Assembly: GCA_038087875.1 (NCBI GenBank)
Contig: CM075991.1
Location: 14,076,001 to 14,140,000, forward strand
Length of the DNA stretch: 64,000 nt
Reading direction: 5' to 3'
From: Malacoraja senta
Taxonomy: Eukaryota
This document shows positions 18,880 to 64,000 of this stretch, piece by piece. Within the stretch, counting starts at the first letter, position 1; each line of letters begins with the position of its first letter. The notes under the pieces were generated by a model, which was not told where the DNA came from, did no database searches, and saw only the letters and a program-made list of their open reading frames with translations. The position numbers were made by a program, and so were the translations under genes.

Positions 18880-19720
18880 TCTCTGGAGAAAAGGAATCAG
18901 TGACGTTTCGGATCGAGACCCTTCTTCAGACCCGACAAGTTACCCATTCCTTCTCTCCGGAGATGCTGCCTGCCCCGCCGAGTTACTCCAGCTTTTTGTG
19001 CCTATCTTCGGTTTAAACCAGCATCTGCAGTTCTTTCCTACACATCCCGACCAGAAACGTTGTCTGTCCATTCCTTCCGCTGATGCTGCCTGACCCGCTG
19101 AGTTACTCCAGCACTTTGTGTTTGACACACCAGAGAACGTGGAGACCAGGGAGGGGGAGCAAAGATTAGGTGGGCAGAGATTGGGAGGCCAAGAGGAATC
19201 GTAACAGGTAAAACTATGAAAAAGAAGAGGCTTTGGCCTACGCAATCTCCCAGTTGCCAAACACTTTAACTCCCCCTCCCATTCCCACACTGACCTTTCT
19301 GTCCTGGGCCTCCTCCATTGTCAGAGTGAGGCCCAACTCAAATTGGAGGAACAGCACCTCATATTTTGTTTAGGGAGTTTACAGCCCAGCGGTATGAACA
19401 TTGATTTCTCAAATTTCTTCATAGTAACCCTTGCATTACCCCCTTCCCCTTCCCCCACCCTAGTTATCCTACTAGTTCCGCCGTTTGTATCCCTGTATCC
19501 CTCCGTTATCACCACCTCCCCGGCCACCAATGGACCATTATGGGCTCCACCCTTCCCAGGTCATCTGTTGCCAGCCCTGCTTTGTGTTGGCCTTTTCTTG
19601 TCTCCAGTTCCCTCCCCTATACTTTCAGTTTGAAGAAGGGTCCCGACCCAAAACATCACCCGTCCTTTTTCTCCAGAGATGCTGCCCGGCCCGTTGAGTT
19701 ACTCCAGCGCTTTGTGTCTA
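18880..19720 (+). mobile_element. Cluster of PLE terminal fragments and a 3' PLE relic
   Basis: Reads KHFNSPSHSHTDLSVLGL...LEEQHLIFCLGSLQPSGMNIDFSNF, plus several pLTR ends. Confidence 0.8.
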
Positions 19721-20184
19721 TCAGCCAGAAGAAGCTATTTTGCGCGACGGAGAGCTCGATATTTGCGGACAGTGATGTACAGGTGGCAGCGGTAGAGTTG
19801 CTGCCTCACAGCGCCAGAGACCCGGGTTCGATCCCGACTACGGGTGCTGTCTGTATGGAGTTTTTACGTTCTCCCCGTGACCTGCGTGGGTTTTCTCCGA
19901 GATCTTCGGTTTCCTCCCCACTCCAAAGTTGAGGCAGGGACTATCATAACATTTAAGAAACAGCACGCAACAAAAAGCTTTTCACTGTACCTCGGTACAT
20001 GTGACAATAAATCAAATTGAGGTAGGTACTATAAAAACATTTAAAAGACATTTGGACGGGTACATGGTTAGGACAAGAGGAGAGAGGTACGGGCCAAATA
20101 TGGGCAAATGGAATGAACCTAGAGTGGGCCTGTTTGTTGGTATGGGCAAGGTGGGCCCTAGGGCCTGTTTCCGTGCTGTATCTC

Positions 20185-20306
20185 TAAACTAAACTAAACT
20201 AAACTAAACTTAACTAAACTAAACTAAACTAAACTAAACTAAACTAAACTAGACTAAACTAGACTAGACTAGACTAAACTAAACTAAACTAAACTAAACT
20301 AAACTA
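20185..20306. repeat. (CTAAA)n array, expanded retroposon tail
   Basis: Follows ...ctgtttccgtgctgtatctct, the HE1/CR1 3' end. Confidence 0.9.
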
Positions 20307-20774
20307 AAGTAAAACTTGGACTGGTAGATGGATAGGAAAGGATGAGAGGGATATGGGCCAAATGTGGTCAACTGGAACTACCTGAGATGGGGCCTGTTTG
20401 TTGGTATGGGTCAGTTGGGCCACCGGGCCTGTTTCCATGCTGTATGACTCTATGACTAAATGCAAGCTATTGCCGTTGATGATGCAGCCGAACCCATTGA
20501 CCTTTCGTACCTGTGTTCTCCTCACGGGAACTAAATGTTCTGCCAACCTTCTCTCGTGCTGGATGACGCATCAGTACGTGATGCCTGCATCTGAGCCGCT
20601 TCCTCATGTTTACACTCACTGCTGATGGGCCTTCCTTTCCATTCCGACCCCTCGCGTCTCAAAAATAACCCGGACGGCCGCGAGCCTGTTACGTAACCTT
20701 CACCCTGGGCTTGCTCCAAGGAACACTGGAAAATGGACAATTGTTACAGTGGGATAACATATAACAAGGAAGTC

Positions 20775-21930
20775 GGCACAGTGGCGCAGCGGTAGAGTTG
20801 CTGCCCGACAGCGTCAGAAACCCGGTTTCGATTGTCGGACTACGGGTGTTGTCTCTACGGAGTTTACACGTTCTCCCCGTTACCTGCGTGGTTTTCTCCG
20901 GGTGCTCCAGTTTCCTCCCAAATCCTTCAAGATGGCGGATGTGCAGGAGTGGGCGCCGGTTGTGCGGGCTGCCTGCCTGCAGTCCGTCTTCTAACCCTTT
21001 TTATTGTCTATAATTTTTATTTGGAGGTCTATTCTTTCTATGTGGGGGGTGGGGAAACTGTTTTAACCCCAGTCCTACCTGGTCGGAGATGCGGTTTTCC
21101 TCCGAATCGCATCTTCGCTCTCCCAATGCGGCCTTCCATCGGGCTGGAGCGGCGTTCCTGCCGGGACCACAGCTTCGGCGGCACAGCGCTGGGACACCAA
21201 CACGGAGCGGGCGATGCCTTGCCGGGTCGCCGCTCCGGAGTGCTGTGACCGCCGACCACCAACATCAAGCAGCGGTCTGCGGTCTGAGGGCGTCCTGCCG
21301 CGTGCGGGCGGCGCTGGGTCGAAAACACCGCGGAGTCAGAGTCGAAGATCCAACCGGCGCGGCCTGAGGACTACGGGCGTCGCAGTCTCCGGGGAGGGAG
21401 CGGCCGCTCCAGACACTTCCAAGCCGTTGAGGACTTTCCACCCGATGCCGGTGTTCCAGCTTCCCGGCGGGTGGGGCCTACAACATCGGGCTGCCGTTGC
21501 GGCGACTGGCTGCGGAGCCCTCAGACTGGCCCCGATCTCGGGTGGACTAGGAGGAGGACTGGACACTTTGGTGCCTTTCCCTCACGGTGGAGAGTGTCGA
21601 CTCTGCTGTGGGGGGGATGTTTATGTTGAATCTCTAAATAGTGTGTCGTGTCTTTTTTATTCTACCTTTTTATTTTTTATTTATATGGTTAATTGTCTGT
21701 AAAGCGCTTTGGTTTCAGTAATCTGATTGAAAGGCGCTATATAAATAAACTTACTTTACTTTACTTTACTTTAAAGACGTGCGGGTTTGTAGGTTAATTG
21801 GCTTCTGTAAATTGTCCCTAGAATGTAGGATAGAACTAGTGCATGGGGTGATCGATGGTTGGCGTGGATTCAGTGGGCAGAAGGACCTGTTTCCACGCTG
21901 TATCTCCAAACTAAACGGAACTAAACTAAA
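20775..21930 (+). mobile_element. HE1-type tRNA-derived V-SINE split by an insertion
   Basis: Head ggcacagtggcgcagcggtagagttgctg...ggtttcgat (A/B boxes). It resumes at 21773 with aaagacgtgcgggtttgtagg and runs to a ctaaa tail. Confidence 0.85.
20926..21772 (+). mobile_element. Non-autonomous SINE-like retroposon with L2-type 3' end (relative of 7421-8463)
   Basis: Begins caagatggcgg and shares GC-rich blocks with 7421-8463. It ends tgtaaagcgctttgg...aaaggcgctatataaataaa followed by (cttta)n. Confidence 0.85.
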
Positions 21931-22185
21931 TGAATGAATGAATAAGTTTATTGGCCAAGTATATTCACATACAAGGAATTTGCCTTGGGGCTCAGCCCGC
22001 AAGTGACAACATGGCATACAGTGACAGTTAGGAATGACACATAAAACATTAAACATTTGAACATTAATCAATTAATAAAAAAAAATTATCGATTAAACTA
22101 AACTAAACTAAAACTCGTATGAACAGGTGATGCGTGGTCAGTATGGATTCAGTGGGCCAAATGCCTGTTTCCCGCTGTATATCTA

Positions 22186-61812: not shown

Positions 61813-61944
61813 ATCTGCAGTCTCTGAAAGTACTTTATTGGTTAAGAAGCCATTTTGGGCATCTCGTTGGCCCTGGAGACTGATTTAAGAAATACGTCTC
61901 CCAAAAGCAAGAGAATAATTCGGAGAACATTTTTGCGGAAACTA

Positions 61945-62335
61945 TATGATACAATACGATGCGATAGAACTTTATTTATCCCAGGAGGGAAATTGATCTG
62001 CCAACCGTCATAAAAACACAGATTACACAAAACACATGAAACATGAAATTAAAGTGACGAGTGGAACGGCCTGGGGGATGTGCAAAGATTGGGGAAGGGG
62101 GGGGGGGGGGAGAGGACAGAAGGGGGGAGGAGTTGTACAGTTTGATAGCCACAGGGAAGAAGGATCTCCTGTGGCGTTCTGTACTGCATCTTGGTGGAAC
62201 CAGGCTGTTGCTGAAGGTGCTCCTCAGGTTGACCAGTGTGTGACGGAGGGGGTGAGCTGTATTGTCCAGGATGCTCCGCAGTTTGAGGAGCATCCTCCCC
62301 TCCAGGACCATCTCCAGTGAATCCAACCCCGCCCC
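61945..62335 (-). mobile_element. Rex1/Babar LINE 3' fragment
   Basis: Reads KLRSILDNTAHPL...CSTERHRRSFFPVAIKLYN. Confidence 0.82.
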
Positions 62336-63550
62336 GAACATAGAACTGCAGATGCTGGTTTATACCAAAGATGGGCACGAAGCGCTGGAGTAACACAGCG
62401 GGTCAGGCAGCATCTCTGGAGAAAAGTGGACGGGTGACGTTTTTCTCCAGAGGTGCCGCCTGACCCGCAGAGTAACTCCAGCACATTGTGTCTATCTTTG
62501 GAGAACATTTCTCTTCAGCTGTCCCAGTGGCAATTTTCAGCATCCATTGAGAAACATAGAAAATAGGTGCAGGAGTAGGCCATTCGGCCCTTCGAGCCTG
62601 CACCGCCATTCACTGTGATCATGGCTGAAAACATCCAGAATCAACACCCTATTGTTCACCCGCTGAGTTGGCCAGTGATACAAATTGCTCACAAATGGAG
62701 CATTTATGAAGAAAATACAGCCTTTCGAGAGACATTCAGATACTTATAGTGCATTCTGTGTGGTTACCAGGGATCTGTAAGTGTTTAAGAAAGAACTGCA
62801 GATGCTGGAAACATCGAAGATAGATAAAAATGCTGGAGAAACTCAGCGGGTGAGGCAGCATCTATGGAGCGAAGGAATAGGTGGCGTTTTGGGTCTTGAT
62901 CCAAAACATCACCCATTTTTATTTTTCCCTCCAGAGATGCTGCCTGACCCGCTGAGTTACCCCAGGACTTTGTGTCTATCTTCTCTGTAAGGTGTGTATC
63001 CCGTGATTTAGTCGGGGTTGGGGGGGGGGTGGGGAAATCATCGACAGAAAATAAAAGTCCAACGCTCTGTGAGAGGAGAGACGCAACCTTTCCCATCGTG
63101 CGTGTTGGTAATATTCCCAGTTCCCGAGCTGACGTTCCCATTAGGTGTACAGCTCCCAGGCAATGCCTTCCTTGCACTCACCAGGATCTTTTAAGAGGCA
63201 TTCTCAGGGTTTTCAGAGAAGCACCATTGGTACTCTGTTATTATGCATCGGCTTGTACATAACGACATTAGAAAGTTCAATTCCATTTATAACAAGGAAG
63301 TTCCTTGGTAATCATTCCCACATGCATTCTTTCAATGTTGCTTCCACTGGCTGACGCCACTTCTCAATTATAATCAGATGGGCCCCTTTCAAGACGCCTT
63401 TTGTTCAGACAGCTAAGGCAGTCTGCTCACCGTAAGGCTGCATGTTCTGTACCATGAATAGGCTGAAGATGAATATGTTCCTCTTTCTGAAATAGAGGGG
63501 GCTCATCTCTATTGATCTCGGCGTCAGAAGCAAACGTGCTTGGGTCAATG

Positions 63551-63781
63551 TTTACGAAGGAACTGCAGATGCCGGAAAATCGAAGGTAGATAAAAATGCT
63601 GGAGAAACTCAGCGGGCGAGGCAGCATCTATGGAGCGAAGGAAATAGGCAACGTTTCGGCCCGAAACCCGTTGGGTTTCGGCCCGAAACGTTGCCTATTT
63701 CCTTCCAAAACGTTGCCTATTTCCTTCGCTCCATAGATGCTGCCTCACCCGCTGAGTTTCTCCAGCATTTTTGTCTACCTC
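63551..63781. mobile_element. Mini PLE foldback with 16-bp TSD
   Basis: Inverted pLTR ends that turn within hammerhead stem II. cgtgcttgggYcaatg occurs at 63535-63550 and 63782-63797. Confidence 0.85.
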
Positions 63782-64000
63782 CGTGCTTGGGCCAATGGCT
63801 GTTTGCTTTCCCGTATTTTCCTTGGAATTTTTCGACTTCCATAACGGGTGGCAGTGGCTAACACAACATCCTCAGGCCTTACGAGTCCGTCATAGTCAGC
63901 ATTTTCTTTGCCCACTCGAAACCCTCGGAATTGGCAGGTTTGCTGACTTGCTCCTGAGTACCAAACCTGCTGGTACAGTGGTTAAGTCTCCAGACTAGGA

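Follow-up and report, generated by a model that had tools for sequence, protein, structure and literature searches.

The stretch of DNA studied here, called the window throughout, comprises 64,000 nucleotides of Malacoraja senta (assembly GCA_038087875.1, contig CM075991.1, positions 14,076,001 to 14,140,000 of the forward strand) and is repeat-rich animal DNA with fragments of long interspersed nuclear elements (LINEs) and long dinucleotide tracts. Our subject is a Penelope-like element (PLE) whose terminus recurs in it as inverted pairs. The longest of these is a 2.2-kb head-to-head insertion at 44271..46455, in which the left arm (minus strand) carries a tail of ~33 nt, the right arm (plus strand) ends at a site without the tail, hereafter the tailless site, and the centre (45376-45383) has the sense sequence, that of the tailless arm. 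A 16-bp direct repeat, placed within a low-complexity repeat, encloses it (left copy 44255..44270 on the plus strand, right copy 46455-46470). The insertion encodes a C-terminal fragment of the PLE open reading frame (ORF; 45381..46241, plus strand, with a mirror copy on the minus strand), which lies after the reverse transcriptase (RT) core and contains a CX4CxxC linker and a GIY-YIG domain with two cysteines between GIY and YIG. The terminus itself consists of a minimal hammerhead motif followed by the ~33-nt tail; in the right arm the motif occupies 46361..46388 (plus strand) and shows the core boxes, one additional nucleotide separating position 9 from 10.1, a 4-bp helix II and a palindromic 15.2-16.2.

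Identity of the element

The GIY-YIG domain of the 2.2-kb element scored slightly below the cut-off of PF01541 (E=2.4e-4, 21.8 bits against 22.6), with the motif visible in the translation, and a GIY-YIG domain at the C terminus, with these cysteines, is the one expected of an endonuclease-bearing (EN+) PLE. The closest protein relative of the ORF was a shark sequence with 61% identity. With regard to the RT upstream of the endonuclease, the window copy of the ORF ends after the RT core; PF00078 was present in most of 78 longer relatives, and the loose ends of reads run on into an upstream motif. A CX2-5CxxC linker before the endonuclease distinguishes Neptune and Nematis from Penelope and Poseidon (PMC8557442). 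The CX4CxxC linker of the window ORF, with a matching motif in most relatives, therefore places the element with Neptune/Nematis and not with Penelope/Poseidon, a clade call made from the linker motif. Since the terminus is common to copies with differing upstream sequence, what the earlier note on this DNA called subfamilies are several PLE families.

Insertions of EN+ PLEs have been described as containing an inverted 5'-truncated copy, a tail of 30-40 bp often at one end only, and a target-site duplication (TSD) of variable length (PMC3846280; PMC8557442; PMC8969392). The same traits were found in the window, namely a head-to-head truncated copy, an optional tail of this size at one end, variable TSDs, palindromes at the junctions and the C-terminal GIY-YIG domain; here, however, most units consist of a ~95-135-nt terminus present twice, and they occur at high density. 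We have little doubt that several PLE families of Neptune/Nematis type gave rise to the pairs, as 5'-truncated insertions in a genome like that of a cartilaginous fish, with the known structure of an inverted pseudo-long terminal repeat (pLTR) plus tail, of which the miniature pairs are the shortest form. The kind of element is already known, and both its architecture and a self-priming explanation have been published (PMC3846280).

The hammerhead features that we used are those listed in PMC4209133 for the minimal hammerheads of metazoan PLE pLTRs, and the window motif agrees in its core boxes, in the nucleotide added between 9 and 10.1, in the G10.1-C11.1 pair and in the palindromic 15.2-16.2. 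Seven terminus copies matched the strict pattern, as expected of an EN+ PLE, cleavage being predicted from the motif. Cartilaginous fishes are not named in the accessible part of that paper; the same source describes dual hammerhead motifs 100-700 bp apart on opposite strands. An Rfam scan found no hammerhead family at the terminus, where two chance matches fell, and only a tRNA reached its gathering score; this match (26496-26568, 70.9 bits) is probably a tRNA gene or the head of a short interspersed element. Pattern scans of viral and metagenome contigs gave no matches.

Inverted pairs in the window

A profile search with the terminus returned 45 matches in the window. Among neighbours at most 80 bp apart, 11 were head-to-head, 3 tail-to-tail and 2 in tandem. 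None of 20,000 strand shuffles gave 11 head-to-head neighbours (mean 4.0), and none of 20,000 random placements within 41.9-64 kb gave 8 (mean 1.0). A retrozyme, made of direct tandem hammerheads that yield circular RNA, was considered and rejected, as 11 of the 16 neighbours were head-to-head and only 2 tandem.

All nine short inverted pairs located by the earlier note were found, and we added four that it lacked, at 25.2, 42.0, 48.4 and 50.9 kb. By the strict tail test these four are all symmetric, two having no tail on either arm and two having tails on both. The pairs measure 136-267 bp, plus the one of 2,185 bp, and 13 of them are independent among 32 terminus loci, with solo copies forming the majority (a copy at position 460 was omitted from the solo count as its 5' side runs out of the window). 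The suggestion that foldback is a routine outcome for this family is thus roughly fair as to frequency, although solo copies are commoner. Of these 13 pairs, 9 bear a single tail, 2 bear a tail on each arm and 2 are without any, and pairs with at least one tail (11/13) exceed the prediction from the solo rate (p=0.002). The short pairs had also been credited with the asymmetry of the 2.2-kb insertion; the tailless arm does end within ~3 nt of the proposed site in six of the nine, but it stops ~45 nt short at 18.9 kb and ~5 nt short at 60.5 kb and runs 12 nt further at 42.2 kb.

The individual pairs differ considerably in make-up. At 18879..19045 the tail is on the right arm, the left arm stops early, the centre belongs to the tailless arm and the pair lies inside an older terminus copy. 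The newly added pair at 25167..25362 is symmetric, with both arms tailless, 2 shared variants seen in no other copy and no significant TSD, and that at 26160..26295 has its tail on the right arm and a centre from the tailless arm. An older pair, also new (41961..42372, no TSD found), has its right arm interrupted by the pair at 42113..42341, which bears a full tail on the right arm, a left arm overrunning the tailless site and a centre from the tailed arm. At 48345..48572 (new, no TSD) an inverted tail with ~8 nt is joined to a longer tailed copy, while at 48683..48832 the left arm is the tail plus 19 nt and a 79-nt unpaired centre belongs to the tailless arm. Both arms are tailed, with differing spacers, in the last of the added pairs (50812..51047), which sits inside an older copy. 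The pair at 57561..57762 mixes families: its left arm is of type A with a tail, its right arm is non-A and tailless, and the two are joined in helix II of the hammerhead. It lies inside a duplicated unit (57432-57778) whose other copy (62647-62999) holds the pair at 62781..62983, which is consequently not an independent insertion. The pair at 60429..60686, with a 72-nt centre made of pieces of both orientations and arms that are 79% alike and unequally diverged, may be two events. The remaining short pairs both have the tail on the left arm: 62342..62502 has a 15-nt centre from the tailed arm, and 63551..63781, a young pair of type A, has a complex centre with a local duplication.

Solo tailed stubs also occur, such as that at 51448..51573 (plus strand; 13-bp TSD 51429-51441/51574-51586) and that at 24795..24935 (minus strand; 14-bp direct repeat with 1 mismatch), neither with an inverted arm. 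At 58108-58140 there is an inverted tail, and 127 bp of other repeats lie between it and a tailless copy (to 58349). This is a possible interrupted pair; it has no TSD and was not counted. Three pairs sit inside older copies of the same terminus (18860-19125, 41961-42372 and 50790-51155), suggesting self-targeting, and a further terminus copy (37382-41450) is split by a (TG)n-type tract of ~4 kb, with its last letters seeming to resume near 41435. Elsewhere in the window, a LINE 3' end at 18367-18653 likewise forms a head-to-head palindrome, both arms ending at LINE terminal repeats around a ~21-nt loop, so double-ended inverted stubs are not confined to PLEs. A 402-codon open frame on the minus strand (8377-9585) resembles by eye a Helitron helicase of PIF1 type.

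Direct repeats around the pairs

Direct repeats of 6-16 bp flank 9 of the 12 pair loci tested (p at most 0.04 against random flank pairs), p values that are optimistic because the boundaries were set by eye with 12 nt of slack. The repeats named previously were all recovered, that is, 11 bp at 26149-26159/26296-26306, 16 bp with 1 mismatch at 63535/63782, and 9 bp (57554/57763) and 8 bp (62774/62984) around the 57.6- and 62.8-kb copies, where the case for a TSD is slightly weakened by the natural spacer, which holds a single copy of TGTAAG-like letters. To these we added 7 bp at 42107/42342, 6 bp at 62336/62503, an AT-rich 7 bp at 60422/60687 and, for the 18.9-kb pair, 13 bp with 2 mismatches at 18865/19045. 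At 25.2, 48.7 and 50.9 kb the direct repeats were not significant against random flank pairs, those at 48.7 and 50.9 kb being of 5 bp.

Ends of the terminus copies

The tailless end is common outside pairs, as 13 of the 17 solo copies with a complete 3' end have no tail. Solo copies cannot gain such an end by a cDNA snapping back on itself, so the tailless site is a primary end or start site. Read runs agree in showing a sharp peak of loose ends at 44306 in four of four runs, among the matches listed (398 + 670 contigs; 1265 + 2802 reads). The rows behind the joints, loose ends and variants that we cite from these runs number 15 of 433, 24 of 3,488 and 40 of 927, respectively.

The other edge of the stubs is also shared. 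The 5' ends cluster at the first bases of the hammerhead: of the 21 copies that extend to it, 11 depart there from the natural upstream sequence. Among the matches listed, all four read runs include loose ends at 44400. A pyrimidine tract and CAG just before the hammerhead resemble a splice acceptor; in D. virilis an intron ends at helix I (PMC4209133). This common edge may reflect run-off at the 5' end of the transcript or a splice junction, and internal priming near the transcript 5' end with run-off there would yield arms of ~100-135 nt. Two DNA runs also contain, among the matches listed, a joint that links 44369 to 44310 across a single letter. Cleavage by the hammerhead is predicted at 44370, and 44310 lies near the tailless end; the joint might represent a tandem unit that begins where the hammerhead cleaves.

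RNA runs from two other organisms cover the terminus in both directions, at a depth ~10 to 50 times that of most of the ORF, and no turn-spanning read or small RNA was seen in those runs. Predicted folds contain stacks of 31-61 bp in the young pairs at 25.2, 42.2 and 63.6 kb and of 11-31 bp in older ones; any transcripts of the young pairs would form long double-stranded RNA.

Relationship between the arms

The two arms of the 2.2-kb insertion differ at 7 of 1076 positions, and comparison with reads shows minor alleles of the family in the two of them, as at 44305. More generally, the arms at 25.2, 42.2, 44.3 and 63.6 kb are 90-99% alike, and in each of these pairs at least one arm has its own partner as the top-ranked match. 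The earlier note had proposed to check whether the arms of a copy share private variants; they do at 25.2 kb (2), 42.0 kb (2), 42.2 kb (1), 44.3 kb (4) and 60.5 kb (1), and not in the other 7 of the 12 pairs. Arms sharing rare or family-minor alleles indicate that both halves of a pair usually came from one template or source.

The 57.6- and 62.8-kb pairs behave differently. They are enclosed by a duplication of ~350 bp (57432-57778 and 62647-62999, 93.8% identical and 5.2 kb apart) that includes ~130 bp of otherwise unique flank and shows no TSD of its own on inspection, so that the nine pairs taken as independent are eight events. At five family-diagnostic sites beyond the hammerhead, the left arms are of type A at 5 and 4 sites, against none for the right arms, and a support of 0.955 places the left arms in family A. 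Arms from different subfamilies, which the earlier note regarded as incompatible with its snap-back reading, are therefore present at this locus. Relative to the nearest group consensus, 7-12 of 63 sites are changed in the right arms and 3-4 of 62 in the left, so that divergence is two to three times greater on the right. The use of two RNAs at once is here no more likely than later replacement or a second insertion, and the 60.5-kb pair resembles this case in its unequally diverged arms.

Overall, the previous observation was partly borne out: the pairs, the named repeats and the differing turn points stood, whereas the independence of all copies and the uniform tailless end did not.

Orientation of the pair centres

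Six same-family pairs are informative as to which arm owns the unpaired centre. In four of them (18.9, 26.2, 44.3 and 48.7 kb) it is oriented like the tailless arm and in two (42.2 and 62.4 kb) like the tailed arm, the remaining pairs being symmetric, complex or mixed. Snap-back of a tail-primed cDNA puts the centre on the tailed strand, so that tailless-arm centres cannot arise in this way without a later deletion. The 2.2-kb pair gives the clearest view of this point. Its central 8 bases are those of the sense strand, that is, of the tailless arm, and position 45376 carries the natural sense-strand base, where more than 90% of the family depth in all four runs shows the other base; the probability of a chance change to this base is near 0.1%. 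Loose ends at 45375 and 45382, among the matches listed, supply the natural upstream sequence. The protein motif at this centre is ambiguous as to strand (DSH in 36 and DTH in 15 of 66 relatives), and it was the reads that decided. The cDNA end at the same centre is predicted to fold at -0.5 kcal/mol as a hairpin and at -8.5 kcal/mol as a dimer. These observations suggest that the two halves of a pair were copied separately from the two ends of a cut target, and not by one strand folding back.

Origin of the pairs

We lean towards double-ended target priming as the process that produces the pairs. According to this model, the GIY-YIG endonuclease would cut both strands of the target 6-16 nt apart, a spacing taken from the TSDs, and each 3'-OH would prime its own antisense cDNA on the element RNA, either at the end of the tail or at the tailless site ~33 nt away. 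This priming step draws on the presence of both ends in the genome and on the both-strand extension and two start sites seen in vitro for an anole PLE. In most cases both primers would use a single RNA, or else transcripts of one source copy, as the shared variants indicate. The PLE RT is not known to have RNase H, and copying one RNA twice would need strand displacement. The cDNAs would stop at differing points, often near the 5' edge of the hammerhead, and be connected, presumably by end-joining; the joints observed lie on short palindromes (at the 5' edge of the hammerhead, in helix II and at an ORF 6-mer) or on microhomology. Two identical antisense ends anneal only at self-complementary sites, which would account for joints on short palindromes. 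Fill-in would then give a palindrome with a TSD, and priming at one end only would give a solo copy. Two primers allow either orientation of the centre. We counted in favour of this model both the occurrence of tail/tail and none/none pairs and the 48.7-kb pair, whose inverted arm is merely the tail plus 19 nt.

The earlier note had read each pair as an independent snap-back product, in which a single tail-primed cDNA turns back, serves as its own template and terminates at the tailless site. The near-identity of the arms, with rare variants in common in several pairs, would follow from this, as would centres on short palindromes with tiny loops, the tailed-arm centres at 42.2 and 62.4 kb and the symmetric 25.2-kb pair, which fits a complete fold-back copy. 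It is nevertheless unlikely, and as a statement about every pair it is unsupported, given one duplicate pair, mixed-family arms that snap-back is unable to make and a tailless-arm centre in four of the six informative pairs, including the young 2.2-kb one, where the modelled hairpin is unstable; moreover, the tailless site ends most solo copies and so is a start site that needs no special stop. The tailless-arm centre and the base at 45376 are compatible with antisense self-priming, the published reading of the palindromes at inverted junctions (PMC3846280), in which the RNA folds back, RT extends it, the hairpin integrates and one end is trimmed at the tailless site. First mates of run X21 over the ORF (44515-45376) also lean about 1:3 towards the usual antisense direction, in another organism and with unspecified library chemistry. 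This explanation expects one fixed centre orientation, however, and both were seen (4 and 2); it leaves TSD-flanked solo copies and mixed arms unexplained, and in vitro target-primed starts on a pLTR-ORF-junction template fall at exactly the two ends of the tail (PMC11167929). We consider it distinctly improbable.

A succession of events, with a new copy re-targeting or replacing one arm at an older copy, is the likely cause of the mixed pairs at 57.6/62.8 and of the 60.5-kb pair, where the arms are unequally diverged. Older terminus copies enclose three of the pairs and the anole enzyme PAc nicks its own pLTR (PMC11167929), but as a general cause this is improbable and for the other pairs unlikely, as at 25.2, 42.2, 44.3 and 63.6 kb the arms agree to 90-99% and one of them at least ranks its partner first, and the TSDs enclose whole pairs. 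A true miniature inverted-repeat transposable element (MITE), or a master hairpin that is non-autonomous and multiplies as a unit, would also be short, palindromic and TSD-flanked, and the 57.6- and 62.8-kb pairs do share one centre. These two copies, however, also share ~130 bp of flank and are hence a duplication, while lengths (136-267 bp), TSDs (6-16 bp) and centres vary elsewhere. Fixed TSD size, uniform length, symmetric terminal inverted repeats and unit amplification were all absent from the window; we regard a MITE as very improbable indeed, and the earlier view of the pairs as PLE retro-insertions of variable length, TSD and centre, not a DNA-transposon MITE, is upheld. Repeats are dense and the loci are known from the assembled window alone, yet the adjacency tests, the TSDs, the mutation-like differences between arms and the unequal ends make chance adjacency or an assembly foldback artefact hardly conceivable.

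Several results weigh against double-ended target priming. Only six same-family pairs in one window are informative; loss of palindrome centres after insertion could have flipped the orientation at 18.9, 26.2 and 48.7 kb, and of the tailless-arm centres only that at 44.3 kb is young, its signal being a single base. Near-equal arms and tiny loops, as at 25.2, 44.3 and 63.6 kb, arise naturally by snap-back, and the shared variants equally fit snap-back or arm-to-arm gene conversion; two or more shared rare variants also occurred in 15 of 809 comparisons between non-partners. One-tail pairs (9/13) are in no excess over an independent choice at each end (p=0.13), and the excess of tailed arms in pairs over solo copies is not significant (p=0.12). 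The mixed-family pair is no proof of two RNAs, its arms being unequal in age. No strand-changing joint was present among the matches listed (15 of 433 joints), so that the turn points come from the window only, and the in vitro data are from another clade, Poseidon.

Relation to known systems and significance

The closest biochemical parallel to double-ended target priming is PAc, a Poseidon PLE of Anolis carolinensis with a predicted dimer, which cleaves the target and extends both strands in vitro, from two start sites that bound the tail and with no difference between strands (PMC11167929). The window copies resemble it in ends ~33 nt apart bounding the tail, in a hammerhead just upstream and in insertion into their own terminus, and differ in having the CX2-5CxxC linker, which is absent from Poseidon. 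We found no discussion of inverted insertions in the accessible main text of PMC11167929. With respect to the self-priming account of EN+ PLE insertions (PMC3846280), the centre orientation and the one mixed-family pair described here oppose simple self-priming. Literature searches found no two-primer account of PLE inverted insertions, and searches on PLE-derived MITEs and on shark PLEs found nothing on point, subscription papers and supplements being thinly covered in both.

Two further systems produce comparable structures. During L1 twin priming the second target end primes a second cDNA, giving a microhomology joint, an inverted 5' part and a TSD, and the arms cover different parts of the RNA; in the window, by contrast, the arms start within ~33 nt of each other and overlap, which yields a palindrome. 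MITEs and foldback DNA transposons are small, palindromic, TSD-flanked and numerous, whereas the pairs derive from the end of a retroelement, are not fixed in length or TSD size, and have neither symmetric termini nor a centre in common.

The pairs are ordinary PLE debris, yet they are open to mis-annotation as MITEs or as hairpin-RNA genes. Their value is mechanistic, as the origin of the PLE inverted copies and of the tail is left unresolved in the accessible text of PMC8557442 and PMC11167929. We tentatively propose that the inverted-plus-tail signature of PLEs could arise when a dimeric protein primes at both cut ends, using the two start sites on either side of the tail, the same stretch of RNA is copied twice, sometimes from RNAs of two families, and the cDNAs are joined at palindromes. 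If the proposal is true, numerous miniature pairs in sharks and rays would be a genomic record of how PLE inverted insertions form.

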